A stretch of 27,323 nucleotides of DNA, from positions 1-27,323 of IMG/VR virus record IMGVR_UViG_2537561979_000007. One strand, 5' to 3'. The position numbers were made by a program, and so were the translations under genes. Shown piece by piece: positions 1,369-26,966 of this stretch. Under the pieces are notes generated by a model, which was given only the letters and a program-made list of their open reading frames with translations, did no database searches and had not been told where the DNA came from. Source of the stretch: a virus. Lineage: Duplodnaviria > Heunggongvirae > Uroviricota > Caudoviricetes. Numbering within the stretch: the first letter of the stretch is position 1; each line of letters begins with the position of its first letter.

Positions 1369-1444
1369 GCCGATATAGCTCAGTTGGTAGAGCAGCGCAT
1401 TCGTAATGCGAAGGTCGTAGGTTCGACTCCTATTATCGGCACCA
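1369..1444 (+). tRNA. thrW: tRNA-Thr (anticodon CGU), 76 nt ending in CCA
   Basis: GCCGATATAGCTCAGTTGGTAGAGCAGCGCATTCGTAATGCG...GGTTCGACTCCTATTATCGGCACCA read directly; cloverleaf with CGT in the anticodon loop and a GGTTCGA T-arm. Confidence 0.95.
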
Positions 1445-3154: not shown

Positions 3155-3516
3155 TATGCTCCAGCCTCCGGTGCTTTTGGCATTACTGCCCAGTGAGTGA
3201 TATTGACGTTTTCAAGGTCCCCGACCTGAAATGTCCACTGCCATTCTCCGGTTTCTTTTTGTCCCCAGGTGTACCAGAGAGAACGCCAGCCAATCAGCCA
3301 GCCTTCTCCATTAGCATCAAATAACAGAACACTTTCATTTGCTGGTGGCAGTTCAGCTGACACTGGTATTATTTTGTTTTCCAGTGCCGCACATTTAGCT
3401 TCAAGCGCGTCGAATTTACGTACCAGGTATTCAGCATCTGTTTCATTCACTTTCAGATCTCGCGGTACACATTTCCCGCGAAGAAACCCTTCCATTTCGA
3501 AAACATTCATGCGCAT
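3154..3516 (-). CDS. Early-left hypothetical protein, YfdS-like (120 aa)
   Basis: ORF overlapping its neighbours; size and order consistent with YfdS. Confidence 0.65.
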   Translation of the reverse strand: MRMNVFEMEGFLRGKCVPRDLKVNETDAEYLVRKFDALEAKCAALENKIIPVSAELPPANESVLLFDANGEGWLIGWRSLWYTWGQKETGEWQWTFQVGDLENVNITHWAVMPKAPEAGA

Positions 3517-5060: not shown

Positions 5061-5423
5061 TTAACGACCTGCTGCGCGGAGTTTTCCGTCAGGTTCACCG
5101 GCAAGAGTCAGTAATTGTCCCTGGTCTTCCTGCAGAATAGTCAGGCGACCACCGCGATTGACATACATCGGCGTTTCGGTAGTGTCTTCTTCGGAAATTT
5201 TCCCGCGGTTAGTTGGGCGAACATATGAGAGTTTGTGTTTGATTTTCACACGGTTCTCATCAAATGGTTCAATTTCCAGGTTGAGCGAGACCTTACCTTT
5301 GGTTTTCGTGTTCATCACACCGGAAGCGACTTCACTGAGAACTGCGCCGATTTTGGTTTCAAATACGCCGCCGTCCAGCTCCCCGATAAATGCCTGTACA
5401 TCAGTACTGCGTTCGCTAGCCAT
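5061..5423 (-). CDS. Early-left hypothetical protein, YfdP-like (120 aa)
   Basis: Start taken at MASERSTD (ATG 5421-5423) with GAGGAG 6 nt upstream; the longer track ORF (to 5744) has a junk-like Pro/Arg-rich N-terminal extension. Confidence 0.65.
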   Translation of the reverse strand: MASERSTDVQAFIGELDGGVFETKIGAVLSEVASGVMNTKTKGKVSLNLEIEPFDENRVKIKHKLSYVRPTNRGKISEEDTTETPMYVNRGGRLTILQEDQGQLLTLAGEPDGKLRAAGR

Positions 5424-5895
5424 TTTGCTGCTCCTCATCATATCGACCCTGCAAGGTCGGTTGGTTTCTCCACAAAACAGAGAAGAACACCTGCGGTGGC
5501 AGCCGCCCGGATGGATTGGGTTATGAGCCCGTCGTCCGGTGATGCTCTTCTCTGTTTTGTAAAAAGAACGGTACCAGCCGGAAGCAAGGGTACAAGCTGG
5601 TGGTACCGCCAGGACTACACACAGCATAAAGTTGTGGTGCCGGGTGCCTCCCTGTGCCTGGCGAAGGTTGCACACCAGGCGGGTGGGTATCCACAGAAGG
5701 TCGACTGTCAGCCTCAACCTTAACCCGCGTGCGCTGAGCCGCATTCACCACAACGCTAAGGATTCTCTCTGGTTGAAAATGCTTAGCTGTTATGTGCCTG
5801 CTTTTAGCCACATCAGGCGAGGTGGACCTAGTTATTCCCCAACAACAAGGATTTGGTTAATCTGGATATCCCCAACAACTAGCTGAGTATTCAAC

Positions 5896-6746: not shown

Positions 6747-7439
6747 TTAATTATGTCTCTTAAGGGTTTGCGACTGACTGATTAAGACCTTTCCAAAGAC
6801 CATGAATCGGTGTTCGTTTTCGCTAGTAATTCCCCATTCACGGTAAATCTGGTTATCAGAAATCACCAGCAGTTTGTCAGGAATCATTTGAAGTCTTTTA
6901 ACGTATATTTTGTCATCAAAACCAAAGACATATATACCATCACCATCAAACTGATTGATGCTGACATCAACGAAGATGAGATCTCCTGGCTCAATGGTTG
7001 GACACATACTGTCCCCACGAACGTTGATAACTTTGATGTGATTGGCCGGTCGTCCGCCGAACATTGATACAGCATTATCAGTTCTGTATTCGATGGCATG
7101 AATCACATCAATGACATCACCGCCCTGGATAAGGCCATTTCCCGCACTGGCACTGATATCCAGCATTTCAATACGGAACACATCCTTCACCTGCGCAACA
7201 TCCTCATTATTACTGTTTTTATATACAGTATTACTTTTGAGGGCAGAGGTAAAGAGATCAGCAATATCAACACCTAAGCTCTTGGCAATATTACTCAGTG
7301 TTTGTTCGGTAAATTGTTTTTGCTTACCCGTTTCTAAGCGCGAGATGTTCGCCGCATCTACTCCTATTGCTTCAGCGAGATCGGCGATTTTCATGTTCTT
7401 CGCTTGGCGAAGTTGTCTGACTCGGTTTCCTATGTTCAT
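6747..7439 (-). CDS. CI-like repressor: N-terminal HTH plus C-terminal S24 (LexA-like) peptidase domain, 230 aa
   Basis: HTH (MKIADLAEAIGVDAANISRLETG); S24 motifs GDSMCPTI (Ser) and KRLQ (Lys); divergent from a cro-like gene with operators between. Confidence 0.88.
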   Translation of the reverse strand: MNIGNRVRQLRQAKNMKIADLAEAIGVDAANISRLETGKQKQFTEQTLSNIAKSLGVDIADLFTSALKSNTVYKNSNNEDVAQVKDVFRIEMLDISASAGNGLIQGGDVIDVIHAIEYRTDNAVSMFGGRPANHIKVINVRGDSMCPTIEPGDLIFVDVSINQFDGDGIYVFGFDDKIYVKRLQMIPDKLLVISDNQIYREWGITSENEHRFMVFGKVLISQSQTLKRHN

Positions 7440-7536: not shown

Positions 7537-7797
7537 ATGCAATCACCATTACGAAATGTGCGTAAGGCGCATGGTTTCACTTTGCAGCATGTTGCTGCGG
7601 GTGTTCAAGTCAATCCAGCGACATTGAGTCGTATTGAGAGGCTGGAGCAGATTCCATCTATCGAGCTTGCAGAACGTTTAGCCAATTTTTTTAAGGGTGA
7701 AGTCAGCGAAATGCAGATTCTTTATCCGGCACGTTTTCAATCTAGCCAAAACCAGAATGGGTTTAAACCACAGGAACAGGAGGTGAACCGTGGGTAA
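7537..7797 (+). CDS. Cro-like HTH regulator (86 aa)
   Basis: GGAGGG SD then ATG; HTH-like segment FTLQHVAAGVQVNPATLSRIE; divergent from cI. Confidence 0.72.
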   Translation: MQSPLRNVRKAHGFTLQHVAAGVQVNPATLSRIERLEQIPSIELAERLANFFKGEVSEMQILYPARFQSSQNQNGFKPQEQEVNRG

Positions 7798-8347
7798 GCA
7801 TCACTGGAAAGTAGAAAAACAGCCTGAGTGGTACGTGAAAGCTGTCAGAAAAACTATCGCAGCGTTGCCGGGTGGTTACGCTGAAGCAGCTGACTGGCTG
7901 GATGTAACAGAGAACGCATTATTTAACCGCCTTCGTGCCGATGGCGATCAGATTTTCCCGCTGGGATGGGCAATGATTTTGCAACGTGCTGGTGGAACTC
8001 ACTTCATTGCTGACGCTGTGGCGCAGTCTGCAAATGGCGTCTTTGTGTCTCTTCCTGACGTCGAGGATGTGGACAACGCCGATATTAACCAGCGTCTGCT
8101 GGAAGTCATTGAACAGATCGGCAGTTATTCAAAACAGATTCGTTCAGCAATCGAAGACGGTGTAGTGGAACCGCATGAGAAGACAGCAATTAACGACGAG
8201 CTGTATCTCTCAATTTCGAAGCTGCAGGAGCATGCAGCACTTGTCTACAAAATTTTTTGCATTTCAGAAAGTAATGACGCCCGCGAGTGTGCAGCTCCGG
8301 GCGTCGTGGCGTCGATTGCTTCTGGTTGTGGAGAAACTAACGCATGA
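7790..8347 (+). CDS. CII-like / YdaT-family regulatory protein (185 aa)
   Basis: GTG start 6 nt after AGGAGG, overlapping the cro stop; family assignment is by position and vague recollection only. Confidence 0.55.
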
Positions 8348-8691: not shown

Positions 8692-9633
8692 ATGAGCACT
8701 AAATTAACCGGCTATGTATGGGATGGTTGCGCTGCATCAGGCATGAAGTTATCCAGCGTGGCAATTATGGCCCGCCTGGCTGATTTCAGTAATGACGAAG
8801 GTGTGTGCTGGCCATCAATTGAAACCATTGCCCGTCAGATTGGCGCGGGGATGAGTACCGTTAGAACGGCTATCGCACGGCTGGAAGCAGAAGGCTGGTT
8901 AACGCGTAAGGCGCGTCGCCAGGGTAACCGCAATGCGTCGAATGTTTATCAGCTTAACGTTGCGAAGCTTCAGGCAGCGGCATTTTCTCAACTGTCAGAT
9001 TCTGACCCGTCAAAATCTGACGCATCAAAATCTGACCCGTCAAAATTTGATGCGTCGAAATCTGGCAAAAAAGCGGGTTTTCACCCGTCAGAATCTGGCG
9101 GGGATCCGTCAGTAAAATCAAAACATGATCCGTCAGATAAAAAAACTTCTCGTCCGGACGCTTCGCAACCGGACACGCAGACGGCTGAACAGGAGTTTTT
9201 AACTCGCCATCCTGATGCGGTTGTATTCAGCCCTAAAAAGCGCCAGTGGGGAACGCAGGATGATTTGACCTGCGCACAGTGGCTCTGGAAAAAAATCATC
9301 GCCCTGTACGAGCAGGCCGCCGAATGTGACGGCGAGGTGGTTCGTCCCAAAGAACCGAACTGGACAGCCTGGGCAAACGAAATTCGCCTGATGTGTGTGC
9401 AGGATGGTCGTACTCACAAACAAATCTGCGAGATGTACAGCCGCGTCAGCCGCGATCCGTTCTGGTGCCGTAACGTGCTCAGCCCGTCGAAGCTGCGGGA
9501 AAAATGGGATGAGCTTTCCCTGCGCTTATCGCCGTCCGTCAGCACGTACACCGAAAAACGCGAAGACCCGTACTTCAAATCCAGTTACGACAACGTGGAC
9601 TACAGCCAGATCCCGGCAGGATTCAGGGGGTGA
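8692..9633 (+). CDS. Replication initiator (lambda O-like), N-terminal HTH, 313 aa
   Basis: GAGGT SD; HTH-like N-terminus (SSVAIMARLADFSNDEGVCWPSIETIARQIGAGMSTVRTAIARLEAEGWL); iteron-like DNA repeats inside the linker-coding region. Confidence 0.68.
   Translation: MSTKLTGYVWDGCAASGMKLSSVAIMARLADFSNDEGVCWPSIETIARQIGAGMSTVRTAIARLEAEGWLTRKARRQGNRNASNVYQLNVAKLQAAAFSQLSDSDPSKSDASKSDPSKFDASKSGKKAGFHPSESGGDPSVKSKHDPSDKKTSRPDASQPDTQTAEQEFLTRHPDAVVFSPKKRQWGTQDDLTCAQWLWKKIIALYEQAAECDGEVVRPKEPNWTAWANEIRLMCVQDGRTHKQICEMYSRVSRDPFWCRNVLSPSKLREKWDELSLRLSPSVSTYTEKREDPYFKSSYDNVDYSQIPAGFRG
8994..9135. repeat. Iteron-like direct repeats (CCGTCAAAATCTGA variants, about 12-14 bp period) inside the O-like gene; putative origin
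   Basis: At least six tandem, degenerate copies read directly (ccgtcaaaatctgac / gcatcaaaatctgac / ccgtcaaaatttgat / gcgtcgaaatctggc / ccgtcagaatctggc / ccgtcagtaaaatca). Confidence 0.5.
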
Positions 9634-12488: not shown

Positions 12489-12505
12489 TTTTGTGGAGAA
12501 AGTTG

Positions 12506-12868
12506 ATGCGTGATATTCAAATGGTTCTGGATCGTTGGGGAGCATGGGCGGCGAGTGATAGTTCAGGAGTAGACTATTCTCCTATAGCTGCTGGGTTTAA
12601 AGGGCTTCTTCCCTATACAAGCAAAACACGTCAGGCTTGTTCAGATAGTGATGCATTAATTATTGAAGGTTGTCTTGCTCTTCTTAAAAAGCGAAAACCG
12701 TACGAGCATTCTTTGATTGTGGCCCATTACCTGTATGGCATCTCGAAAAGAAAGCTTGCAAGAGCTCGCAAAAAAGATGAGAAATTGATACGTATAGAGA
12801 TACAGATGGCTGAAGGGTTTATTGATGGATGCCTTTCAATGCTGGATGTTAAACTTGAAATGGAGTAG
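12506..12868 (+). CDS. Late-gene antiterminator Q, short QuuD-like type (120 aa)
   Basis: MRDIQMVLDRWGAWAAS...IAAGFKGLLP matches my recollection of short Q antiterminators; GGAG 8 nt before ATG 12506; position after the Nin block. Confidence 0.72.
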   Translation: MRDIQMVLDRWGAWAASDSSGVDYSPIAAGFKGLLPYTSKTRQACSDSDALIIEGCLALLKKRKPYEHSLIVAHYLYGISKRKLARARKKDEKLIRIEIQMAEGFIDGCLSMLDVKLEME

Positions 12869-12873
12869 AAAAA

Positions 12874-12893
12874 AGGGCATTTCTGCCCTTTTT
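12874..12893. terminator. Bidirectional intrinsic terminator between Q and the convergent cassette
   Basis: AGGGCA-TTTC-TGCCCT hairpin flanked by AAAAA on one side and TTTTT on the other. Confidence 0.5.
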
Positions 12894-13335
12894 AAATGTG
12901 GGGGAGTATCCAGTTTACTTTTCTCCATGTAAAGGCAAAAGTTATTACTGAAATGATAAGAAGAGATAAAGATTCGATAATTAAAATAAATTCTATTTTT
13001 TCTCCATGTAACAATGTCTTTTCATTGGCAAACATTGCTATCAAAGCAATAACGCATGCCGTAATTAAAGATGCACCTGCGGTTAATAGATTTACAATAA
13101 TAACTTGAAGTATGTTGTTGTTTTTTAATGCTTTTATTATTCCATTTGAGTTTTCGCTAGCAGCACTAAAAATTGATATTGTGGCTAAAATAAAACCAAA
13201 TAAAATACCGGATACAGTTGAAATAACCCCGGAGGCTGTAAGTATGTCAGCATGCCCCATCTGAGGGATATACCTCAGTAGGAACAAGGTGCAAAAAACA
13301 CTTACAATCAGGTTTCTTAAGTATTTCAATAACAT
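12892..13335 (-). CDS. Small integral membrane protein, about four predicted TM helices (147 aa); second gene of the AT-rich cassette
   Basis: Four long hydrophobic stretches; AAGAAGG SD; separated by 3 nt from the upstream gene; visibly AT-rich. Confidence 0.62.
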   Translation of the reverse strand: MLLKYLRNLIVSVFCTLFLLRYIPQMGHADILTASGVISTVSGILFGFILATISIFSAASENSNGIIKALKNNNILQVIIVNLLTAGASLITACVIALIAMFANEKTLLHGEKIEFILIIESLSLLIISVITFAFTWRKVNWILPHI

Positions 13336-13338
13336 ATC

Positions 13339-14279
13339 CTATACCTTCTTTTTGCTGATATCGTATTGCTTAAGGTATTCATTGTTATCAATTTTAGCAG
13401 AAATCATGGCTTGCAGAACATCACTATCAGTGCCATAACCATTAACGGTATATATGTTTTTTTCTGAAATGAGTACCTGATCAAGAAGACTTTGTTCAAC
13501 GGTATTTTTGGGCTGTGTTACTGCCGCTTTTTTTACAATTCCCGGCATTTTTTCAAGGAGTTCTTTAATACCATCCTTAACGAGATCTGATAAATAACCT
13601 TTGACTTTTACTCTCCCTGATGCACGTCCCCTTAGATTTAACTTGAGACGTGTTCCACCCAGCCCTACCATCATATTTACCAGTTCCTTAGAAAATGAAC
13701 TATTTAGCTGGTAATTTGTTGCATCAAAGTTCCTGGGAGCAGCCAGGACAATATCACAACTTCTCAAAGTACTTCCTGTTTCAAGTAGCTCTTTGACGCT
13801 CTCTTTTTTCCAGATGGCTTGGAATGAAAAGTTATTTCCAGGATTACCACTCTGGCTGTAAAGCAGATAAGCTAAATCCGATTCTTTCGGCCCAAGATGA
13901 TTTTGAGTTAATATTAAAATATCACTATCGTAATAATATAAAAAATAGGTTCTTTCGACTATGTATTTTTTATCATCTAGTGGTATGTTGTGCTCATTCC
14001 AGTATTCATCACCAATATAAGGAAGGAGATACTCTTCTCGTGAGCATGACATGTAGCCGAAGAAATATTTAGCTTTTGTATCTTTATTTATAAAAGCTAT
14101 TTTTAACTTTTTATTTCTATAGATGGTATCAAAATGATTATTCGTAACGGTTACGCAAGTATTATACAGATTTTCAATTGCTTGCTTAGCAACTGAATGG
14201 CTGCGGATAGTCCCAGAACTGCTGGTGTAAAAACCAATTTTAAGTTTTTTTGTTTCTTTGATTGCGCAATAGTAGCCAT
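13339..14279 (-). CDS. Hypothetical cytoplasmic protein, first gene of the AT-rich cassette; apparent frameshift at an A7 tract near the 5' end (313 aa if the tract were A8)
   Basis: ATG at 14277-14279 with AAGG SD opens an 11-codon frame that runs into an A7 run (plus-strand T7 at 14245-14251); the 237-aa body (track ORF 13339..14052) is open in the adjacent frame all the way up to that run. Confidence 0.5.
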
Positions 14280-14909: not shown

Positions 14910-15962
14910 ATGAAAAATACTGTAAAAATAAACAGTGTTGATTTAATCAACTCTGATTGCCTGCATTTTATTCAGTCCCTGCCTGATGATTCCATTGACC
15001 TGATAGTTACCGATCCGCCGTACTTCAAAGTGAAGCCCAACGGCTGGGACAATCAGTGGAAAGGGGACGAAGATTACCTTAAGTGGCTGGACCACTGTCT
15101 GGCTCAGTTCTGGCGGGTGCTGAAACCTGCCGGAAGCCTTTACCTGTTCTGTGGACATCGCCTGGCATCTGATATCGAGATCATGATGCGTGAACGTTTC
15201 AACGTGCTTAACCATATCATCTGGGCGAAGCCGTCCGGACGTTGGAATGGGTGTAATAAAGAAAGTCTGCGCGCATATTTTCCTGCCACAGAGCGCGTTC
15301 TGTTTGCTGAACATTACCAGGGGCCATATCGCGGCAAAAGTGACGGCTATGCGGCAAAAGAAAGGGAACTCAAACAGCACATAATGGCACCGCTGATATC
15401 GTATTTCAGGGATGCTCGTGCCGAACTGGGTATAACGGCAAAACAAATTGCCGAAGCCACAGGTAAGAAAAATATGGTTTCCCACTGGTTTGGTGCCAGT
15501 CAGTGGCAGTTGCCGAATGAGGCTGACTATCGGAAGTTACAGGCACTGTTTTCTCGTATAGCGGCAGAGAAGTTTCAGGAACAACAACTGGAACAACCAC
15601 ACCACCAGCTGGTGGCATCTTATGATTCACTGAATCGCAAATATTCTGAATTGCTGGATGAGTTTAAATCTCTCCGGCGCTATTTCTCCGTATCAGTCTC
15701 CGTGCCTTATACCGATGTCTGGACGCATAAGCCCGTTCAGTTCTACCCGGGTAAACATCCGTGCGAGAAACCGGCGGATATGCTCCGGCAAATAATCAAT
15801 GCCAGTAGTCGACCTGGTGATCTGGTTGCTGATTTCTTTATGGGATCCGGTTCCACAATAAAAGCAGCAATGGCGCTGGGGCGTCGGGCGTTAGGTGTTG
15901 AACTTGAGTCAGAGCGGTTTAATCAGACGGTGAAAGAGGTAAGTGAACTGGTGGGGAAATAA
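14910..15962 (+). CDS. Orphan DNA methyltransferase, beta-class (DPPY motif IV before FxGxG motif I), probably N6-adenine (350 aa)
   Basis: DLIVTDPPY near the N-terminus and DFFMGSGST near the C-terminus; no adjacent restriction-endonuclease gene. Confidence 0.85.
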   Translation: MKNTVKINSVDLINSDCLHFIQSLPDDSIDLIVTDPPYFKVKPNGWDNQWKGDEDYLKWLDHCLAQFWRVLKPAGSLYLFCGHRLASDIEIMMRERFNVLNHIIWAKPSGRWNGCNKESLRAYFPATERVLFAEHYQGPYRGKSDGYAAKERELKQHIMAPLISYFRDARAELGITAKQIAEATGKKNMVSHWFGASQWQLPNEADYRKLQALFSRIAAEKFQEQQLEQPHHQLVASYDSLNRKYSELLDEFKSLRRYFSVSVSVPYTDVWTHKPVQFYPGKHPCEKPADMLRQIINASSRPGDLVADFFMGSGSTIKAAMALGRRALGVELESERFNQTVKEVSELVGK

Positions 15963-16038: not shown

Positions 16039-16374
16039 ATGCCTCATAACCCAAATACCTGGCCGGACTGGCTGGAGTTGTTTCAGAGCTGGTGGCGTGG
16101 AGACACACCGCTGGGCGCAGTGATTATGTCGATCGTTATGGCTGGCTTGCGCATTGCCTATTTTGGCGGTGGTGGTGGCTGGAAGCGAAAAACGCTCGAG
16201 ATTTTGCTCTGTGGTGCTCTGACGCTGACTTTTGCATCCGCTCTTGAGTATGTCGGATGGCCTAAATCACTATCTGTTGCCATTGGTGGTGGGGTGGGGC
16301 TGATCGGTGTTGATGCTATTCGTGGGGCTGCAATGAGAGTAATCGGTAACAAGTTTGGTGGCTCTAAGGAGTAA
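16039..16374 (+). CDS. Holin, lambda S-like (111 aa, three hydrophobic segments)
   Basis: In-frame ATG at 16039 after GAGGTGAG; three TM-like segments; directly upstream of the endolysin; the track ORF start at 15943 would span the terminator. Confidence 0.68.
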   Translation: MPHNPNTWPDWLELFQSWWRGDTPLGAVIMSIVMAGLRIAYFGGGGGWKRKTLEILLCGALTLTFASALEYVGWPKSLSVAIGGGVGLIGVDAIRGAAMRVIGNKFGGSKE

Positions 16375-16377
16375 TTT

Positions 16378-16854
16378 ATGCAGGTACTAAATTCCCAGCG
16401 TAAAGCTTTCCTCGATATGGTGGCATGGTCAGAAGGAACGGATAACGGGCGACAACCGACACGTAACCACGGTTATGATGTTATTGTCGGTGGAGAACTC
16501 TTCACTGATTACTCCGATCACCCTCGCAAACTTGTCAAGCTAAACTCCAAACTCAAATCAACAGCCGCCGGACGTTACCAGCTTCTTTCCCGTTGGTGGG
16601 ATGCTTACCGTAAACAGCTTGGTTTGAAAGACTTCTCCCCCAAAAGCCAGGACGCAGTGGCATTGCAGCAGATTAAAGAGCGTGGCGCTTTACCTATGAT
16701 TGATCGCGGTGATATCCGTCAGGCTATCGATCGTTGCAGCAATATCTGGGCTTCATTGCCGGGCGCTGGTTATGGTCAGTTCGAGCATAAGGCTGACAGC
16801 CTGATTGCAAAATTCAAAGAAGTTGGCGGAACGGTCAGAGAGATTGAAGTATGA
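16378..16854 (+). CDS. R: Endolysin, lambda R-type lytic transglycosylase (158 aa)
   Basis: Near-identical by recollection to lambda R (QRKAFLDMVAWSEGTDNGRQ...GYDVIVGGELFTDYSDHPRKLV...). Confidence 0.9.
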   Translation: MQVLNSQRKAFLDMVAWSEGTDNGRQPTRNHGYDVIVGGELFTDYSDHPRKLVKLNSKLKSTAAGRYQLLSRWWDAYRKQLGLKDFSPKSQDAVALQQIKERGALPMIDRGDIRQAIDRCSNIWASLPGAGYGQFEHKADSLIAKFKEVGGTVREIEV

Positions 16855-16889
16855 GCAGAGTCACCGCGATTATCTTCAGACCCATACTG

Positions 16890-17369
16890 ATATGCCCGGC
16901 AACGATGACCTGAAGGGCATTAACGTGAAATACCGTTATGAATTTACGGACACGCTGGGGCTGGTGACGTCATTCAGTTATGTCAATGCCAAAGATGAGC
17001 AAAAAAACGCATTACAGCGATACCCGCTGGCATGAAGATTCAGTGCGTAACCGCTGGTTCAGCATGATGGCGGGGCCGTCTGTACGCGTGAATGAATGGT
17101 TCAGTGCTTATGCGATGGCAGGTGTGGCTTACAGCCGTGTTTCAACTTTTTCCGGGGATTATCTCCGCGTAACTGACAGCAAGGGGAAAACGCACGATGT
17201 GCTGACTGGAAGTGATGACGGTCGCCACAGCAACACGTCTCTGGCGTGGGGGGCTGGCGTGCAGTTTAACCCGACCGAATCCGTGGCCATTGATATTGCT
17301 TATGAAGGCTCCGGCAGTGGTGACTGGCGCACTGACGGTTTCATCGTGGGTGTCGGTTATAAATTCTGA
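16890..17369 (+). pseudogene. lom: lom-like outer-membrane protein (Ail/Lom/PagC family), 5'-truncated and frameshifted at an A7 tract
   Basis: Lom-like strands (LKGINVKYRYEFTD ... DIAYEGSGSGDWRTDGFIVGVGYKF) split across two frames at the A7 run 17001-17007; no signal peptide; preceded by a 24-nt Rz start (ATGAGCAGAGTCACCGCGATTATC). Confidence 0.72.
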
Positions 17370-17395: not shown

Positions 17396-17423
17396 AGCCC
17401 GCCGGTTCAGGCGGGCTTTTTTG
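17396..17423 (+). terminator. Intrinsic terminator after lom
   Basis: AGCCCGCC-GGTTCA-GGCGGGCT hairpin followed by TTTTTT. Confidence 0.7.
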
Positions 17424-17433
17424 TGGAGTGGAT

Positions 17434-19812
17434 ATGGCAGCAGTAAAAATCTCAGGTGTGCTGAAAGATGGTGCGGGAAAACCAATACAGAACTGCACTA
17501 TTCAACTGAAGGCAAAGCGTAACAGCACCACGGTACTGGTGAACACGGTGGCCTCTGAAAATCCGGATGAAGCCGGGCGTTACAGCATGGATGTTGAGCA
17601 TGGCCAGTACAGCGTCATCCTGCTGGTTGAAGGTTTTCCGCCTTCACATGCCGGGACCATTACCGTCTATGAAGGCTCCAGACCAGGTACGCTGAATGAT
17701 TTTCTCGGTGCCATGACGGAAGAGGATGTCATGCCGGAGGCATTGCGTCGTTTTGAGGCAATGGTGGAAGAAGTGGCACGCAACGCCGAAGCCGCCTCTC
17801 AGAGCGCAGCGGCGGCAAAGAAATCCGAAACTGCAGCGGCATCATCGAAGAACGCGGCGAAAACCTCAGAAACGAATGCAGCTAATAGTGCACAGGCGGC
17901 AGCGACCTCAAAGACTGCATCGGCAAACTCCGCGACAGCAGCCAAAAAATCAGAAACCAACGCGAAAAACAGTGAGACAGCCGCAAAGACGAGCGAAACC
18001 AACGCAAAGTCCAGCCAGACGGCAGCGAAAACCAGCGAAACGAATGCTAAAGCCAGTGAAACTGCGGCAAAAAACAGCCAGGCTGCAGCAGCTGAAAGCG
18101 AGAGCGCGGCAGCCGGTTCTGCGACTTCAGCAGCTGGATCAGCAACTGCTGCGGCTAACAGCCAGAAAGCTGCGAAGACGAGTGAAACTAACGCAAAGTC
18201 CAGCCAGACGGCAGCGAAGACCAGCGAAACGAATGCCAAAGCCAGTGAAACTGCGGCGAAAAGCAGTCAGGATGCAGCGGCCCAAAGCGAGAGTGCCGCA
18301 GCCAGTTCTGCAAGCGCGGCGGCTGCTTCTGCCACTGCATCAGCCAACAGTCAAAAAGCTGCAAAAACCAGTGAAACCAACGCAAAGGCGAGCGAGACTG
18401 CGGCGGCTAACTCGGCGAAAGCATCCGCTGCAAGCCAGACGGCTGCAAAAGCAAGTGAAGACGCAGCCAGAGAGTATGCAAGCCAGGCTGCGGAGCCGTA
18501 TAAACAAGTTTTGCAGCCGCTTCCCGATGTGTGGATACCGTTTAACGATTCACTGGATATGATTACGGGGTTTTCGCCGTCATATAAAAAGATTGTTATT
18601 GGTGATGATGAAATAACGATGCCTGGCGATAAGGTTGTAAAGTTTAAACGCGCATCGAAAGCAACCTATATTAATAAATCTGGTGTGCTGACAGAGGCTG
18701 CCATTGACGAGCCACGATTTGAACGTGATGGCCTGCTTATTGAGGGGCAAAGAACTAATCTTCTGCTTAATTCAACAAATCCATCTAAATGGAATAAGTC
18801 AGGCAATCTGGAACTCACAGAAATATCCACGGATTCTTTTAATTTTACTTATGGGAGATTTACTGTAAAAGATACTCTTATTGGTCAAACAAGTGCGATT
18901 AGTATCGTAACGGTTTCTGGCAGTAAAGGATTTGATGTCACAGGTGATGAAAAATATGTGACCATTTCATGCCGTGTCAGAAGTGATGTTGAAAATATAA
19001 GGTGTCGTTTAAGATTTGAACATCATGATGGTTCTACTTACACTTTTTTGGGAGATGCTTACCTCAATTTATCAACACTTGTAATTGATAAAACTGGTGG
19101 TGCAGCAAATCGTATTATTGCAAAGGCTGTAAAAGATGAGGCTACTGGTTGGATTTTCTATCAGGCTACAATTACTGCACTAGATACAGAGAGCATGATT
19201 GGTGCGATGGTTCAATACGCTCCAGTAAAAGGTTCAGACACAGCATCTGGAGACTATCTGGATATCGCAACTCCACAAGTGGAAGGTGGATCAAGTGCTT
19301 CGTCATTTATTGTAACTGATACAACTGCAAGCACCCGCGCAAGCGATATAGTTACAGTTCCAATTAAGAATAATCTTTATAGTCTTCCTTTTACAGTTCT
19401 GGTTGAGGTTCATAAAAACTGGAATAAAACACCAAATGCAGCACCGCGTGTTTTTGATACCGGCGGTCATCAAACCGGAGCGGCTATTATTCTTAGCTTC
19501 GGTTCTTCAGCAGATTACGACGGATTTCCTTATTGCGATATTGGAGGAGCTAACAGACGGGTAAACGAAAACGCATCGCTTGAAAAAATGGTTATGGGGA
19601 TGCGTGTAAAGTCAGATCAGTCTACGTGCTCAGTAAGTAACGGGCGTATATCCAGCGAAACAAAAACCACATGGTCTTATATTCAGAACACCGCAATTAT
19701 CCGTATTGGAGGCCAGACTACAGCCGGGTTACGTCATTTATTTGGTCATGTCAGGAATTTCAGAATATGGCACAAGGCATTGACTGATGCTCAGGTGGGG
19801 GAGTTAATCTAA
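17434..19812 (+). CDS. stf: Side tail fibre protein Stf: lambda-like N-terminus, Ala/Ser/Thr-rich repeat shaft, divergent AT-rich C-terminal receptor-binding domain (possibly LamG/ConA-like)
   Basis: N-terminal MAAVKISGVLKDGAGKPIQNCTIQLKA... resembles lambda Stf; start taken at ATG 17434 after GGAGTG; C-terminal third is visibly AT-rich. Confidence 0.82.
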   Translation: MAAVKISGVLKDGAGKPIQNCTIQLKAKRNSTTVLVNTVASENPDEAGRYSMDVEHGQYSVILLVEGFPPSHAGTITVYEGSRPGTLNDFLGAMTEEDVMPEALRRFEAMVEEVARNAEAASQSAAAAKKSETAAASSKNAAKTSETNAANSAQAAATSKTASANSATAAKKSETNAKNSETAAKTSETNAKSSQTAAKTSETNAKASETAAKNSQAAAAESESAAAGSATSAAGSATAAANSQKAAKTSETNAKSSQTAAKTSETNAKASETAAKSSQDAAAQSESAAASSASAAAASATASANSQKAAKTSETNAKASETAAANSAKASAASQTAAKASEDAAREYASQAAEPYKQVLQPLPDVWIPFNDSLDMITGFSPSYKKIVIGDDEITMPGDKVVKFKRASKATYINKSGVLTEAAIDEPRFERDGLLIEGQRTNLLLNSTNPSKWNKSGNLELTEISTDSFNFTYGRFTVKDTLIGQTSAISIVTVSGSKGFDVTGDEKYVTISCRVRSDVENIRCRLRFEHHDGSTYTFLGDAYLNLSTLVIDKTGGAANRIIAKAVKDEATGWIFYQATITALDTESMIGAMVQYAPVKGSDTASGDYLDIATPQVEGGSSASSFIVTDTTASTRASDIVTVPIKNNLYSLPFTVLVEVHKNWNKTPNAAPRVFDTGGHQTGAAIILSFGSSADYDGFPYCDIGGANRRVNENASLEKMVMGMRVKSDQSTCSVSNGRISSETKTTWSYIQNTAIIRIGGQTTAGLRHLFGHVRNFRIWHKALTDAQVGELI
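17998..18375 (+). repeat. In-frame tandem duplication (2 x 189 bp) in the stf shaft region
   Basis: aacgcaaagtccagccagacggcagcgaa... recurs 189 bp apart (from about 18001 and 18190), encoding two 63-aa TNAKSSQTAAKTSETNAKASETAAK... units. Confidence 0.6.
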
Positions 19813-20093
19813 TGAAAGATTTAACACTCAAATTTGTCGACAGGGCCGACTTTTCGGCCTTTATGGAGAGTATCGGCTATTATGATGATGAGTCGATGCA
19901 GGATGATATTCTTATTGACGTGATAGGTAACGTGTACAAAGAAACCGGAGAACTTACCGAAGATGGCGAGCCGGTATGTGTTAAGGAAGACGGATATTTT
20001 GTAAACGTGCGCATCATTAATGATGCAAAAAAATCGTCAATATTCGATAAATACGCGATTGTTGTTGAGCATCAACTTCGTGGCTGGATGTGA
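19812..20093 (+). CDS. Hypothetical protein between the tail-fibre genes, possibly a fibre assembly/chaperone protein (93 aa)
   Basis: TAATG overlap with the stf stop; function inferred from position only. Confidence 0.45.
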   Translation: MKDLTLKFVDRADFSAFMESIGYYDDESMQDDILIDVIGNVYKETGELTEDGEPVCVKEDGYFVNVRIINDAKKSSIFDKYAIVVEHQLRGWM

Positions 20094-20102
20094 GGGAGAC
20101 AA

Positions 20103-21143
20103 ATGGCTACATCGACAGTAATTCCTGAAGACATCAAAACGCTAAAATCCGACGTTAGCAAATTAAAAAACGATCAAGGAAGCTACGCAACAAAATCTTA
20201 TGTAGACAATAAAACAACATGGAATGGTTATTGCAATGTAATCTATGATCAAAAAACATTGCCAACAACTGGAACTATATTCAGCGGTAAGCTGCATTTG
20301 TCAAATAAGACTGGTGAAACGGAAAACGCTTATAGTGACATATATACCAGAAAAAATATTGATGGTACTAAAGATACAATGACGAGGATCGTCACACATA
20401 ACGGGACAAAAGGTATCTTTTGGGACTTTAGTGATCTTTACGGAGGAACTTTAATTTTCCCTGGCACTGCTGGTTATTTGAAAATGGGTAAGTGCCTCAT
20501 GTCCTATGGGGATCGTGTAGATAATGCCCTGATTAAATTTGATTATACAGACACATTACAGATCAAATATGCTAATCACGGGTCGACCATGACATTAAAC
20601 ACACAGGGAACCGCTTATGCTGGTGTTACTGCTAAATTGTGGGGCAACTCTAGCCGTCCGGTTGTTTATGAAGTCGGTGTTGATGGTGGCGCTTATATGT
20701 TCTATGCGCAGAAAAATACCGATAACACCTATATGTTAAGCGTTAATGGTGCATGTCATGCCACCGCATTTAACCAGCATTCCGACCGGGATCTGAAAGA
20801 CAACATTCAGGTGATCAATAATGCAACCGACCGCATCCGTAAAATGAACGGCTATACATACACGCTTAAAGAAAACGGTATGCCCTATGCTGGTGTCATT
20901 GCACAGGAAGCTCTGGAAGCAATCCCAGAAGTTGTAGGTTCCGCAATGAAATATCAGGACGGTGCAAGCGGATCGGAAGGTGAAGAAGGTGAACGTTATT
21001 ACACAGTAGATTATTCTGGTGTTACTGGCTTGCTTGTTCAGGTAGCCAGAGAGTCAGACGACAGAATAACAGCACTGGAAGAAGAAAATGCAGAATTAAA
21101 ACAAAGATTATCTGCAATTGAGGCGACGCTTGCGTCTAAATAA
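20103..21143 (+). CDS. Tail fibre/spike protein with C-terminal peptidase-S74-like intramolecular chaperone domain (346 aa)
   Basis: SDRDLKDNI followed by GVIAQE and a terminal coiled coil (ALEEENAELKQRL), as in self-cleaving fibre chaperone domains; GAGGGAG SD. Confidence 0.72.
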   Translation: MATSTVIPEDIKTLKSDVSKLKNDQGSYATKSYVDNKTTWNGYCNVIYDQKTLPTTGTIFSGKLHLSNKTGETENAYSDIYTRKNIDGTKDTMTRIVTHNGTKGIFWDFSDLYGGTLIFPGTAGYLKMGKCLMSYGDRVDNALIKFDYTDTLQIKYANHGSTMTLNTQGTAYAGVTAKLWGNSSRPVVYEVGVDGGAYMFYAQKNTDNTYMLSVNGACHATAFNQHSDRDLKDNIQVINNATDRIRKMNGYTYTLKENGMPYAGVIAQEALEAIPEVVGSAMKYQDGASGSEGEEGERYYTVDYSGVTGLLVQVARESDDRITALEEENAELKQRLSAIEATLASK

Positions 21144-21479: not shown

Positions 21480-21952
21480 AAAAGGGAGTTGTAAACGCAA
21501 CACAGGAAGAGGTGCCGCTTCAGGTTGCTGGGAATAAGCGCCGGGGTCTGTTAAATCATGCCAATACGCTAATCGAGCCAGATATTGAGTAGCCTGCAGT
21601 CCGTCATGGCGTAATCGTTTTGTGATATGCTGCACGCCGTATGCAAGGAGCATGATTGCGCTCGACTGGCGAGCGCTCGATAGTGCTACTATTGAATGAT
21701 TGCTAGTCTAGGCGGATTGTACTTAAGTAATATGACGGTTCAAGGCGTTTAATCTGAAACCAGCCACATATTAGCCTTTTCAAACATTTCCTGAACACTC
21801 AGGCTTACCTGCTCTTTCTCGTGCTTGCTGGCATTTGTGTTGAGCGCCGGTGAATACTCTTACTCAACACTCCCAGAATTATATCTGTTGCATCAGGCAG
21901 ACCATCAAAATTCTTTTGTCATAAACGAGTTCCACGAATAATGTGCCCTATG

Positions 21953-21971
21953 GTAGGGCACTATTGATATG
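21953..21971 (-). terminator. Putative terminator hairpin downstream of the minus-strand gene 22025..22819
   Basis: Perfect palindrome GTGCCCTA-TGG-TAGGGCAC, followed on the minus strand by ATTATT (weak U-tract). Confidence 0.4.
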
Positions 21972-22024
21972 AATGAGTAGCTAAAAAGATTTTTCGTTAT
22001 GTATTAATGTATCTGTCACTTATT

Positions 22025-22819
22025 TTATAGTAAAGATGATATGCCAGCAAGAAATGGAGTAAATACTGTAATGTGTGCAGATACATTATTAATAAAGTCC
22101 TTATATGCTTCTTTAAAACAGCCGCTTTGGTGACTGGCTGCCAGTGCCTGTACATTATCTATAAGGTGTGATTCTGTCGCGCCATCAAAGTTTTTCGATT
22201 TTATTGCCTCAATCATTTCATTAAATATTGTGGGCTCATTATAATTTGTCGTAGTAGTTGCCGTAGCACCTGAAGAATGTATATTGATACTAGAACCGGA
22301 AATTCCACTGACATGAATATTAGCTTCTTGTTTCATAAGAGGTAAACCATTCTCCATCTTGTATAGGTCACTATCTTGTAGCATCTGCAATGTGATACGT
22401 ACTGCTGCTAATAGTTGTTCTTGCTTTTTGAATAAGGAACACATCTGTTCTACAGACCAAAGCTGAACTGCATTTTCTTCGCATGTTTTTTTAGCTATAT
22501 TTGGCACTTCCGAATCATAATTACCATAAACCCAAGTGTCCTTGAATCTTTCGATAATAGCTGTCAACGTTGGAAATTTACTGAAATCACTATTAATGGA
22601 TAGTAACTCATCAGACATATAAAGTGCCATATCTCTGCCTTCCGCATATACTGCTTCCACTTTATTCCGTGTTGCAAATGGTATTCTTGAAATAAAACGA
22701 AAATCCTCTTCATTTTTTAAATGGACCCAGTCTTTATCAAAACGGCTAAATTCGTACCCTATCGATAACAGTCTACTTATATATTGGGCTACTGATTCCA
22801 AATCTTTTCTTATGTCCAA
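22025..22819 (-). CDS. Hypothetical protein, AT-rich orphan (264 aa from TTG 22819; 271 aa from TTG 22840)
   Basis: Long ORF with no in-frame ATG for about 70 codons; AGGAGT lies 6 nt before TTG at 22817-22819; terminator-like palindrome downstream; no family recognised. Confidence 0.55.
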   Translation of the reverse strand: MDIRKDLESVAQYISRLLSIGYEFSRFDKDWVHLKNEEDFRFISRIPFATRNKVEAVYAEGRDMALYMSDELLSINSDFSKFPTLTAIIERFKDTWVYGNYDSEVPNIAKKTCEENAVQLWSVEQMCSLFKKQEQLLAAVRITLQMLQDSDLYKMENGLPLMKQEANIHVSGISGSSINIHSSGATATTTTNYNEPTIFNEMIEAIKSKNFDGATESHLIDNVQALAASHQSGCFKEAYKDFINNVSAHITVFTPFLAGISSLL

Positions 22820-23289
22820 AGTATTACTCCTGCTTGTCAACCGAATCTGTCGGTTTTCTTACAAATGGCTTGTCTTTAAAGTTCTGATTAAAAAGACGCT
22901 AACCAATACTTAATAATACATGAAAAAAAAGCGCATAAGCTGGCTTTTTTATCAATCGGGAACTGCGGCCCCTTTGCGTATCCTTTTTTGTTTCTTCACC
23001 GTCTGGTCGGTGTTCTGCTGAGACTGCTAATTTCCTGTTTTTGCTAGTGCTGTCTTGGCACTGTCCATCGTGATTGGTGGACTGGTGAAGTTGAAACCGC
23101 AGACACGTCGTATGCAAGAACGTGCTGCGGCTGGCTGGTGAACTTCCGATAGTGCGAGTATTGAATGATTTACAGCCGTTATTGATTTTACATATTTTTT
23201 GTATGAAAGGATTAGCGCCTCCTCCCACCGATCCTCCATGACTTTACGCCACTGTCTCTAGGACTGCTATGTGCTAGGAACGGACATAG

Positions 23290-23652
23290 AAAACACGATG
23301 TTATAAGATTAGGTGCATCTATCCGATAGTATTCATTGGACGTGATGATCGTACTAAGCCGATCTCAAAGGAAAGCATTAATCAGGTAATTGAGCTATTA
23401 GGATAAAAAGGAAGGCTGACGGGGCATGGTTTTCGTCACACAATGAGTACCATTCTGCACGAAGAAGGATTCAACTCTGCATGTTTCGAAACACAACTTG
23501 CACATGTGGATAAGAACGCTATTCTCGGGGCTTACAATCATGCACAGTATTTGGAAGGGAGACAACAGATGATGCAGTGGTATAGTGAATACATAGATAG
23601 CTTGTCTAGAAATAGACTTCCGCAATTTTTTCTTCAAAAAAAGGCAGTATGA
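23290..23652 (+). pseudogene. C-terminal remnant of a P4-type tyrosine integrase (5'-truncated, in-frame stop at 23404)
   Basis: ...GRDDRTKPISKESINQVIELLG*KGRLTGHGFRHTMSTILHEEGFNSACFETQLAHVDKNAILGAYNHAQYLEGRQQMMQWY matches the C-terminal catalytic region of P4-type integrases by recollection (HGFRHT box, AYNHA Tyr box); about 280 N-terminal residues absent. Confidence 0.65.
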
Positions 23653-23714: not shown

Positions 23715-26700
23715 ATGAATGTACAGAAAACCAAATTTTCATCTAAAGAATTTCTAAGGCGCCGTCGCCCTGAAAAATTTTCTGATTCAACAATCAGAGA
23801 GACTGGTACTTTAGACAGAGTTGTACTGGAACACTTCCTCTCTACGCTAAATACAAGAAATCAAGAACTACAATTCGAAGATTTTGCAAAAAAAATATGT
23901 GAAAAAATAATTTGCCCTAATCTCCTTGAACAAACTGGCCCTGTAGCAGGGGGGGATGGTAAAACTGACACACAAACATTCCCTGTTTCAGAACAGAATA
24001 AGCTTCTTTGGTTCGAAGGCGTTAATGAAGCATCAAATAGAGAACGCTGGGCCTTTGCGGTAAGTACACGTAAAGACTGGAAGAAAAAATGCCATGAAGA
24101 TGTACTTAAGATAAAAGAAACAGAACGTGGGTATGCTAAAGTATTTTGCGTAACGAACCAGTCTGCAAAGTCCAATATTCGTTCAGAGGTTGAGGATACA
24201 CTAAAAACAAAAACTGGAATAGATGTTCGTATATTAGATATTAATTGGCTATTAGATCAAATTTACAAAAATAATTTTGAGCAATTGGCCATTGATTCAT
24301 TGTCAGTTCCAACGCAATATAAAAGAGAAGTTATTTTTGGAGAAAATGATTATAAAAAGCATAAAAAATATGAAGAGTTAACCGAGTATATTAGAGAGAA
24401 AATAAACCCTGCTGAAATTTCATATGAACAGGTGGATATTTTTTTAGAAATTGCAGAGTTAAGCGCTGAACTTGAGAAACCACTAATTGAAACACAAGGT
24501 CTATTTGAAAGAGCTATAAAAATATCAAAGAAATTCGGGACTAATCAACAATTGCTAGATGCGTATTATCAATATGCCTGGAAGTCTCATTTTTGGATGG
24601 AAGATTTTAATCTCTTTGAAGAAAATCTTCAATTTGCATATGAAAGTATTGCATCATCAACTAATTCCTCAAAATGGGAGAAAGTTTTAAATTTAGTAAC
24701 CGTTCATAAAAGTTATATTAGACTTAACAACGCAACATCTACAATCGATATTGAGAATATTGAACGTAACATGCTCGCTAAACTAGATGAGATAGCTGAC
24801 GATGAATCACGTCCCAGTAATGCACTCACAGCGAGAACTCACAAAGCTATTTATAAATTGACAACGTTTTCAGATGTAGAAGATGCTTCGGTTGTATTTG
24901 AAGAGTTACATGAAATTTTTAAAAATAGTGGAAATTTAATAGGCTATTCCTTTGAGAAGAACTTCCAACTTTTGAACGAACTGGATGACATTTTTTTCGA
25001 GGTAGATGCATATGAAAATTTATTAGACTATATGACTGAGCAATCTGCTGTTAGAGGTGGTGAAGTTAAAGGGGCATTATTAAATCTACGAAGAGGTATA
25101 AAGAGGATTCAAAATGGTCACCCTTATCAGGCAATCAAGTATTTAGGAAAATCATTTATACCACTCTATAAAGAGGAATCACGAGATAAATTTATATTAG
25201 CATTAAAAGCTATTGCTTATGCTTACGAATCCATTGGGTTGCTATGGAGTTCACGTTCATGCTTGCTTCTATCCGCTTCTTTGATTACAGATAACTACTG
25301 GAAGTATGATGAGATATCATTAAAGCAGGCTGAGATTTATTATAGTTTATGCCTGGCAGAAATAAAACTAGGGAAATTAGCACATGCTCTTTTATGGTAT
25401 GAACTGTTTTTAATAATTAACCAAAATATCAGTGATAGCTCGTTCGGCGATAAAGAAAATCAGCAAGTTGATTTTTACATAAGTCAACTCATTTTGAACA
25501 CTGACCTAAATGGAATAAATCGACAGAGTAATATTCCCGATGAACTCGATAGATTAGGTCTTTTTGTATCATCTGGATGTCTTAAATATGCTTTAGGTTA
25601 TATTGAAAATTTTGAACATGAGTACGAAGTTACTGCCGATAAAGATCATAATGATTTCTTGCAAAAAATACGTGACTTTGATGCTGGATTCAATAGTAAA
25701 GGCATAAAAGATAACTATGATAAACGAGGAATATATACATCTTTTATTTTTGGATGCACTATAGAAATTAACTTTCCGAATCGGTCACCATTTATAGAGT
25801 TTTCAACTAGTATCTTAGCGCTTTTAGAGAGTGCTTTTGCAACTTGTACGATTGATAACATCCATCTGAAAGAAGCATTTTTAATTATTGAAGTAATAGC
25901 AGATGATGAAGATGACTTCTCCTTATCACATGAAATAAATAGCAATAATGGAAAACTAAACCTTACTATAAATTGCAATGGTTTTGAAACAAGTGCATTT
26001 AGAGTCGATGTTCAACAAAAAATTACTAATGAATTCAAGAAAATAGTATTTGATCTTCTCCCTGAGTTATTTTTTATAAAAAATACAGAATACATTGAAA
26101 GAATGATATTCGAAGATGCTGCATTTGACAGAGCAATTAGTTTCGGTGCCTGTATCAAAGCTATTGAAAATGTTCTTGGAAATGATATTGATCAACAAAT
26201 TAAGAAAATTTATTCCACCAGTACTGAAAAGAAAACTTACCCTCTTTTAAGAGATAAACCCTGGGATAGTGAATTTCCAAAAGTGTTGGAGATCGAGGAT
26301 GTAAATGTTCCAACACCTGGTAAAGGAATAATGCCTGAAGAGGAACTTAATTCCGAAAATATAACGCATAAAGATTATTCAATACAAAGTCTAATCAAAC
26401 CTCGTCTATGGGATAGAACACGCTGGCAAGGAGTAGGCTTCGCTCAATTAAAATCGTGTTATCCAGGGTTATATCTATTATTTAAACACCCCGATATAGG
26501 TGAGGATATTTTTAAAGATCTTATATCATCAGTAGGCTTGGTAGATAGTAAAGCCAGATTACGGGTTTGTATTGTCAAGGGTATTTCAGTTAAAAACCCA
26601 AATCATTATAGAGTACTGATATCTGAAAATATGATGACAACGCCATTAACTAAAAGAATGACAATGATCAGTAGAATTAATACGATGACTCCTGATAGTA

Positions 26701-26966
26701 ACGTCAATTTAGAAAGATTTCTTGCTGCGTATCAGGCCTGTGGAAAATTCTATCTTGGATGTGATGCGATGTTAAAAAATATTGTTCCTGAGCATCCACA
26801 AAGAGATAGTTTAGGGATAGAAATGAGTACGTTAGATGTTAGGTGGGCTTGGGAAATTGGGTTAAATGATGTTGATTGTATTGGGGTTAATTTAAAAGAA
26901 GATGACCCCTATATTCCTAGTGATGTAGCTGAGATCCCATTATTGCAATTGATAAACAGTAAATAA
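23715..26966 (+). CDS. Large orphan protein (1083 aa): N-terminal Mrr-like PD-(D/E)xK nuclease-type motifs plus about 900-aa predominantly helical C-terminal region
   Basis: Uninterrupted 3.25-kb ORF, GAGGAG upstream, visibly AT-rich; N-terminal GGDGKTD ... AFAVSTRK ... KVFCVTNQS resembles the Mrr catalytic pattern (GDGGIDG ... QCK ... GVFITTSSF); no Walker A/B motifs. Confidence 0.8.
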   Translation: MNVQKTKFSSKEFLRRRRPEKFSDSTIRETGTLDRVVLEHFLSTLNTRNQELQFEDFAKKICEKIICPNLLEQTGPVAGGDGKTDTQTFPVSEQNKLLWFEGVNEASNRERWAFAVSTRKDWKKKCHEDVLKIKETERGYAKVFCVTNQSAKSNIRSEVEDTLKTKTGIDVRILDINWLLDQIYKNNFEQLAIDSLSVPTQYKREVIFGENDYKKHKKYEELTEYIREKINPAEISYEQVDIFLEIAELSAELEKPLIETQGLFERAIKISKKFGTNQQLLDAYYQYAWKSHFWMEDFNLFEENLQFAYESIASSTNSSKWEKVLNLVTVHKSYIRLNNATSTIDIENIERNMLAKLDEIADDESRPSNALTARTHKAIYKLTTFSDVEDASVVFEELHEIFKNSGNLIGYSFEKNFQLLNELDDIFFEVDAYENLLDYMTEQSAVRGGEVKGALLNLRRGIKRIQNGHPYQAIKYLGKSFIPLYKEESRDKFILALKAIAYAYESIGLLWSSRSCLLLSASLITDNYWKYDEISLKQAEIYYSLCLAEIKLGKLAHALLWYELFLIINQNISDSSFGDKENQQVDFYISQLILNTDLNGINRQSNIPDELDRLGLFVSSGCLKYALGYIENFEHEYEVTADKDHNDFLQKIRDFDAGFNSKGIKDNYDKRGIYTSFIFGCTIEINFPNRSPFIEFSTSILALLESAFATCTIDNIHLKEAFLIIEVIADDEDDFSLSHEINSNNGKLNLTINCNGFETSAFRVDVQQKITNEFKKIVFDLLPELFFIKNTEYIERMIFEDAAFDRAISFGACIKAIENVLGNDIDQQIKKIYSTSTEKKTYPLLRDKPWDSEFPKVLEIEDVNVPTPGKGIMPEEELNSENITHKDYSIQSLIKPRLWDRTRWQGVGFAQLKSCYPGLYLLFKHPDIGEDIFKDLISSVGLVDSKARLRVCIVKGISVKNPNHYRVLISENMMTTPLTKRMTMISRINTMTPDSNVNLERFLAAYQACGKFYLGCDAMLKNIVPEHPQRDSLGIEMSTLDVRWAWEIGLNDVDCIGVNLKEDDPYIPSDVAEIPLLQLINSK

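Follow-up and report, generated by a model that had tools for sequence, protein, structure and literature searches.

The prophage integrated at thrW of E. coli TA007 very probably carries the scar of one recent, microhomology-mediated internal deletion of ~20.8 kb, which it shares with E. coli TA008; the parent was a lambdoid, mEp460-like prophage, and its exact identity and the deletion size were derived from mosaic relatives, no sequenced intact phage having both arms more than 97% identical. The window (the whole stretch of DNA analysed, 27,323 nucleotides) comes from the 2011 draft scaffold GL872109.1 of TA007. In the proposed mechanism, a single deletion would have joined nt 25 of the spanin gene Rz to codon 35 of lom at the motif TATCT. 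The segment lost would comprise the remainder of Rz, Rz1, cos, Nu1, both terminase functions, the genes for the portal, the protease/scaffold, the decoration and capsid proteins, and all the tail genes through J. These genes form one contiguous block (Rz-cos-Nu1...J-lom) on the integrated map. The event would most simply have been RecA-independent illegitimate recombination at short homology; because the repeats lie 21 kb apart, breakage followed by microhomology-assisted end joining is more likely than replication slippage.

The join can be read directly from the letters of the window as ...GAGATTGAAGTATGAGCAGAGTCACCGCGATTATCTTCAGACCCATACTGATATGCC..., just after the endolysin gene R. The stop codon of R (TGA, 16852-16854) overlaps the start codon of Rz (ATG, 16851-16853). 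The Rz remnant (16851-16875, plus strand; ATGAGCAGAGTCACCGCGATTATCT) is composed of the ATG, seven more codons (MSRVTAII in translation) and one base. The alignments showed that its 25 nt exactly match the beginning of Rz in lambda, mEp460_4F5 and OZ038884, the last of which is a chromosome encoding an R protein identical to that of the window. In a BLAST comparison that was independent of these alignments, the left arm ends at 16875 and the right arm begins at 16871. The alignments and the overlap of the BLAST arms place the deletion junction in a 5-bp microhomology, TATCT, at 16871-16875. The motif is present in both parental sequences: Rz reads ...GATTATCT and then CCGCTC, and lom reads ...GGGTATCT and then TCAGAC. 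For random joins, an overlap of at least 5 bp has a computed P of ~0.005 (~0.5%).

Past the junction, the Rz frame runs through 12 junk codons to a TGA at 16911-16913. The resulting chimeric ORF of 20 codons (16851-16913, plus strand; translation MSRVTAIIFRPILICPATMT*) is a by-product of the out-of-frame join; lom is out of frame with Rz, and therefore no Rz-Lom fusion protein is produced. The junction is not a chance resemblance, because 25 nt of exact Rz and ~500 nt of near-identical lom directly follow an R gene whose product is 93% identical to lambda R. The first-pass annotation had described about eight Rz codons followed, within 16851-16910, by the interior of a lom gene lacking its signal peptide. 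This description was exact: 25 nt of Rz are left, lom is entered at codon 35, the chimeric ORF stops at 16911-16913, and alignment to R-Rz and lom gave overlapping homologies at 16871-16875.

The lom remnant (16871-17369, plus strand) comprises codons 35-199 and the stop codon, as supported by alignment, tblastn and the Pfam Ail_Lom matches of the called fragments. From 16871 it reads Tyr-Leu-Gln-Thr-His-Thr-Asp-Met, and the 34 codons that are gone include the start codon, the signal peptide and the beginning of the mature protein. Over 499 nt, the remnant differs from the intact lom of E. coli 7/2 by two substitutions and one inserted A (99.4% identity), and it is 98% identical to the lom of phage PhiR47_1. 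The tblastn search with lom matched residues 35-82 and 75-199 in two frames of the window. This is due to one additional A in the A run at 17001-17007 (A7) of TA007, which splits the remnant into two ORFs (16805-17035 and 16980-17369). The same run is A6 in TA008, E. coli 7/2 and PhiR47_1, and the lom remnant of TA008 is one ORF of 174 aa. The additional A is probably a homopolymer sequencing error of the 2011 draft. The frameshift was also considered as a sign of age; this was ruled out, given that TA008 lacks it and that TA007 has a second ORF-breaking homopolymer difference.

The Lom barrel domain is still recognised on the called fragments (PF06316/PF13505). An Ail/Lom outer-membrane beta-barrel protein is marked by a complete ORF, an N-terminal signal peptide and an eight-stranded barrel; here codons 1-34 are deleted, and the TA007 copy is frameshifted. 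The remnant would thus be a pseudogene whose product could not be exported. After lom is a predicted intrinsic terminator (hairpin and T-run; 17396-17417, plus strand) found by the terminator scan. It is conserved from the intact phages and is annotated at the same position in mEp460.

The extent of the loss was measured on the intact thrW prophage of E. coli SCEC020023, in which the two breakpoints are 20,846 bp apart (1115-21960 of that locus, reverse complement). The annotated order in this prophage is Rz, DUF1398, YlcI, Nu1 (nohD), terminase, W, portal, S49 protease, D, E, FI, FII, Z, U, V, G, T, H, M, L, K, I, J, lom and stf. The tblastn searches of the window with the SCEC020023 proteins matched only S, R, the lom remnant and the N-terminus of Stf; no match was found in the window for Nu1, A, W, B, C, D, E, FI, FII, Z, U, V, G, T, H, M, L, K, I, J or Rz. 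Moreover, the ORF inventory from the integrase to the right boundary leaves no space for the missing morphogenesis genes. The element measures ~21.8 kb, compared with ~42.6 kb for the intact parent.

The spanin genes and the packaging site were also lost. In lambda, Rz1 starts 220 nt into Rz, which is 196 nt past the break, and therefore both spanin genes are deleted. A two-component Rz/Rz1 spanin consists of a full i-spanin, which has an N-terminal transmembrane domain and periplasmic coiled coils, and an o-spanin lipoprotein encoded by an embedded gene; only 8 codons of Rz are left in the window. A cosN-like site (AGGCGGCGACCT) followed by a lambda-like cosB is located in the SCEC020023 interval that corresponds to the deletion, and no lambda cosN was found in the window within 1 mismatch. 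Two matches with 2 mismatches (at 17897, in the stf repeats, and at 3215) were dismissed, since they lack a cosB context.

The element shows the features of a defective lambdoid prophage. It is integrated at an att site, encodes a phage integrase and has host genes on either side. Its genes follow the lambda order (int, immunity, replication, Q, S, R ... lom, stf), as assigned by PHROG and Pfam and by 96-98% DNA identity to lambdoid phages. The genes indispensable for virions are missing: 20 packaging, head and tail proteins have no tblastn match, and there is no cos. The element would thus be unable to build virions, and cos-based packaging by a helper phage would be impossible. The first-pass annotation had claimed that everything from Rz through J is absent and that the prophage cannot form particles alone, and the tblastn searches and the ORF inventory bear out the first statement and support the second. 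Its further claim, that lysis genes and tail fibres are retained, holds for the holin, the endolysin and two fibre genes; both spanin genes, however, are deleted.

The junction was examined in other genomes. TA008 (ADKA01000014.1), which was sequenced and assembled separately, has a junction that is identical base for base. The two strains were compared over two stretches of ~750 and 310 bp (~1.06 kb in total), in which they differ only in two homopolymer runs (17001-17007 and 14245-14251). The second run is in the DUF6731 gene and has a length of 7 in TA007 versus 8 in TA008; the ORF is broken in TA007 only, and encodes 313 aa in TA008. Both of the ORF-breaking differences of TA007 are probably draft sequencing errors. 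TA007 and TA008 appear to be near-identical, and so they represent independent assemblies but not evolutionarily independent witnesses.

The junction search found no other copy in 5,426 complete E. coli genomes, among the GTDB species representatives (one genome per species), or in the JGI metagenome contigs. Among 24 contigs encoding the identical R protein, R is followed by a 152-aa Rz (PF03245) in 22, and by Ail_Lom only in TA007 and TA008. The deletion is therefore private to one lineage. It is also recent, as judged from three observations: both arms are nearly identical to intact phages, no other decay is seen, and the join is confined to TA007 and TA008.

The genes that remain in the prophage are intact. 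The integration site is the thrW gene for tRNA-Thr (CGU) at 1369-1444 (plus strand), which was identified by ARAGORN and Rfam and forms the left attachment end; it was the only match in the Rfam scan of the whole window. The proA gene (1-1254) lies just upstream, and a full-length tyrosine integrase (1459-2622, minus strand) follows, with matches to PHROG integrase families and annotation as a tyrosine recombinase in the relatives. NCTC9041 and SCEC020023 have the same annotated arrangement (proA-thrW-integrase). The intact immunity region includes a CI-like repressor with HTH and S24 peptidase domains (6747-7439, minus strand; Pfam HTH/Peptidase_S24), a Cro-like protein (7537-7797) and a CII-like protein (7790-8347), and an O-like replication initiator is encoded at 8692-9633; all four have full-length coverage of their PHROG profiles. 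RusA, KilA-N, DUF968/HNH and an orphan type II methyltransferase are also kept, with end-to-end PHROG/Pfam profile matches. A 227-aa ORF at 5061-5744 (minus strand) corresponds to a gene that is annotated as yfdP plus a separate frameshifted hypothetical in NCTC9041, SCEC020023 and FCI54; the gene may be whole in TA007 and disrupted in many other genomes.

The late region begins with a Q-type antiterminator (12491-12868, plus strand; phrog_79, PF06530). Q drives the late operon, which now runs into the junction. Between Q and the methyltransferase is a two-gene cargo (12892-14279, minus strand), encoding a 147-aa protein (phrog_8552) and the DUF6731 protein, for which no PADLOC or NCBIfam matches were found. 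The same slot in the thrW relatives contains an ATP-dependent nuclease (NCTC9041), a KAP NTPase (VTB97432v) or other hypotheticals (SCEC020023 and FCI54), and it appears to be a hotspot of variable accessory or defence genes. The orphan type II N6/N4 DNA methyltransferase (14910-15962; PF01555, PADLOC MTase_II) is located directly upstream of the holin gene, within the late region, and is conserved in mEp460-like phages and thrW prophages. Apart from the methyltransferase, the PADLOC and NCBIfam searches of the unannotated cargo genes gave only one marginal PADLOC match (E = 0.0017), to a 271-aa ORF at 22025-22840.

The lysis genes that are left encode an intact holin S of the lambda family (111 aa; 16039-16374, plus strand; PF05106, phrog_126), which is 99% identical to the SCEC020023 holin, and an intact endolysin R (158 aa; 16378-16854, plus strand; phrog_90), whose identity to lambda R extends over all 158 aa. 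The endolysin has no Pfam match (E <= 0.01) and no NCBIfam match (E <= 0.001), and its RefSeq homologues are labelled as glycoside hydrolase family 24; the missing matches probably reflect the libraries or filters and not the biology of the protein. Downstream of lom, the Stf-like side tail fibre is an intact ORF of 794 aa (17428-19812, plus strand; PF08400, with phrog_1419 matched over 1-793 of 793). Nested tandem repeats with periods of 21, 42 and 189 nt occupy 17934-18405 of stf and encode an Ala/Ser/Thr/Lys-rich ‘SETNAK...’ region, at which the TA007 gene caller mis-split stf into a 427-aa call and a reverse 146-aa call. A 93-aa ORF (19812-20093) precedes the second tail fibre, which is intact (346 aa; 20103-21143, plus strand) and has a C-terminal S74 intramolecular chaperone domain (PF13884, with phrog_4563 matched over 1-346 of 346).

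The right limit of the prophage-derived DNA is approximately at 23100-23245, where the match to the prophage of strain 7/2 stops (23245), and from 23100 on the flank is 99.5% identical to the DNA that follows the intact thrW prophage in strain 6409. Beyond this boundary are an integrase remnant (23398-23637) and a gene for a 1083-aa protein (23715-26966). This protein has no Pfam, NCBIfam or PADLOC match and is not in phage records; members of its 90%-identity cluster are from Salmonella, Klebsiella oxytoca, Enterobacter hormaechei and Cronobacter. The integrase remnant and the 1083-aa gene appear to be left over from an older island at thrW. The flanks are ordinary chromosome: proBA-thrW lies to the left of the element, and its right side leads to the pao operon, yagU and ecpD. 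Contiguous structural genes, which would have contradicted the loss put forward in the first-pass annotation, were looked for on both sides; and since both flanks are ordinary chromosome, no structural genes are contiguous with the element.

No attR, as a repeat of at least 12 nt of the thrW 3' region, was found in the window. A direct repeat of the thrW 3' end (attR) is located at the equivalent of 27410-27434, just past the window end and after the 1083-aa gene, and no att copy was found at the right boundary of the prophage itself (~23245). The position of attR only after the 1083-aa gene suggests that a single att pair encloses both the prophage and the older remnant. Judging from this arrangement, independent excision of the prophage may be impossible. 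Moreover, given the lack of an att copy at its own right boundary, more than one rearrangement may have shaped the element.

Could the join be an error of assembly, in which the lysis region of one prophage was wrongly connected to the lom region of another in a chimeric contig? TA007 is a draft scaffold with apparent homopolymer errors, and similar lambdoid prophages usually occur several times in an E. coli genome (the median number of matching places was 2). The identical junction in TA008, however, makes misassembly very unlikely, and it answers the artefact objection that the first-pass annotation had left standing. Repeat-induced errors fall inside long shared repeats, whereas the 5 bp shared at the joint are too short; the window has no Ns, and the element has the expected thrW chromosomal surroundings on both sides. 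The probability of an artefact is therefore close to negligible. A deletion across two tandem or different lambdoid prophages at thrW (or one that was partly replaced), from the Rz of the first to the lom of the second, is also improbable. Besides one morphogenesis module, such an event would take out an internal att site and the early region of the second phage. The best matches of the two arms do differ: that of the left arm is the thrW prophage of SCEC020023 (97.5%, up to 16875), whose lom/stf is only 89.5% identical to the window, and that of the right arm (97.1%) is a prophage of strain 7/2 at another site, adjoining sitABCD. Tandem integrative elements also occur at thrW in several strains. 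However, the mosaicism of lambdoid phages predicts different best matches for each arm within one phage, and mEp460-type phages have the MTase-holin-R-Rz cassette and the lom-stf arm in a single genome. A deletion within one prophage needs fewer assumptions and gives a parent of normal size (~42.6 kb); the product and its biology are identical under either reading.

The element might also be regarded as streamlined by functional selection, either as a satellite that hijacks helper capsids or as a domesticated cassette for lysis and tail fibres. All of its remaining genes are intact, including Q, the holin, the endolysin and two tail-fibre genes; the thrW prophages of NCTC9041 and FCI54 also lack morphogenesis genes and have distal fibre genes; and the lysis module of DLP12 has host-level effects (PMC7918800). 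The satellite form, on the other hand, is at odds with the deletion of cos, which leaves helper terminases without a cutting target, and with the absence of small-terminase, capsid-remodelling or other satellite hallmark genes. The loss of the spanins degrades the lysis module rather than refining it; the junction is out of frame and yields junk ORFs only; and the element is confined to one lineage, in which nothing points to spread or long-term retention. The three thrW deletions moreover have different endpoints, as random decay predicts. There is thus very little likelihood of selected streamlining, and it is highly doubtful that a Q-controlled holin-endolysin-tail-fibre cassette was retained and exploited by the host lineage. 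If it were, the cassette could allow altruistic lysis or the release of vesicles upon SOS induction, with no phage being produced, or its intact side tail fibres could be supplied to co-resident or superinfecting lambdoid phages through recombination or phenotypic mixing; the repeated loss of morphogenesis genes with the fibres spared (NCTC9041, FCI54 and TA007/TA008) would then reflect selection and not chance. Other categories of element were rejected. A phage satellite (PICI, P4-like or cf-PICI) does not agree with the lack of cosN within 1 mismatch and of ORF matches to terminase-small or capsid-related proteins. In a tailocin or gene transfer agent V, G, T, H, M, L, K, I and J would not all be missing, as they are here together with the capsid genes, only the fibre genes being left. 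An inversion or translocation is contradicted by the same orientation of the Rz and lom remnants, and no reciprocal joint is found in the element.

With a single internal deletion as the preferred explanation, several consequences can be suggested from the gene content and established lambda biology. Immunity and SOS inducibility are probably kept, as the CI-like S24 repressor, Cro, the CII-like and O-like proteins and Q are full length. The holin and endolysin would probably still be expressed from the late operon if the prophage is induced. Spanins are necessary for disruption of the outer membrane (PMC5295617, PMC6139136); without Rz/Rz1, this disruption is expected to be poor and lysis inefficient. 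The deletion is probably neutral, or mildly advantageous through disarming the prophage. It is a known sort of event in a new instance, and its importance is mainly for annotation, with no new biological question raised. For example, prophage predictors that call this ~22-kb element incomplete would be responding to a real cause, which is a caution, and the junction is usable as a marker of the TA007/TA008 lineage.

Illegitimate recombination at short homology, or microhomology-assisted end joining, is known in E. coli from lacI deletion spectra, the formation of lambda bio transducing phages, and alternative end joining. The TA007 endpoints are similar in that they lie at a 5-bp direct repeat of which one copy is retained; whereas the spacing of 21 kb is long for slippage. 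The intact relatives mEp460/mEp460_4F5, PhiR47_1 and the SCEC020023 thrW prophage share the lambda gene order, with a left arm (MTase, holin, R and Rz start) that is 96-97.5% identical and a lom-stf arm that is 92-98% identical. Unlike TA007, they still have the ~21 kb that extend from Rz codon 9 to lom codon 34, and they are or appear to be particle-forming.

Deletion is the standard route by which lambdoid prophages reach a cryptic, ‘grounded’ state (PMC6379469), and the TA007 element is a base-pair-resolved example of such grounding by one deletion, as ordinary decay. The DLP12 prophage of E. coli K-12 is also lambdoid and has one internal deletion of head and tail genes, with a lysis cassette (essD, rrrD) upstream and tail-fibre-related genes downstream. 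The scar in K-12 is the place where nohD-aaaD' (a terminase remnant) abuts tfaD. The breakpoints of DLP12 are inside the terminase on the left and in the fibre-assembly region on the right, whereas those of TA007 are 25 nt into Rz, which is unusually early for a left break, and in lom. DLP12 keeps the spanin pair rzpD/rzoD, bor and Nu1 (nohD); TA007, in contrast, lacks the spanins, cos and Nu1, and has both fibre genes intact. DLP12 is also old and more decayed, with IS5 and pseudogenes, whereas the TA007 element looks recent.

The thrW prophages of NCTC9041 and FCI54 are similar to that of TA007 in their proA-thrW site, integrase, early region, architecture of the MTase and lysis genes, and internal loss of morphogenesis genes. 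The joint between Rz and lom is in neither of them. In NCTC9041 (21678-22618 of its locus), an HNH remnant is joined to the C-terminus of a gp53-like fibre, and Rz/Rz1 are kept. FCI54 has two smaller deletions, from a terminase remnant to an S49 protease remnant (21734-23074 of its locus) and from a head-tail joining gene to a tail protein remnant (25300-26823). On these sequences, the thrW prophages of this family have decayed independently at least three times, and together with NCTC9041 and FCI54 the TA007 junction provides a data point for the deletion spectra of decaying thrW prophages.
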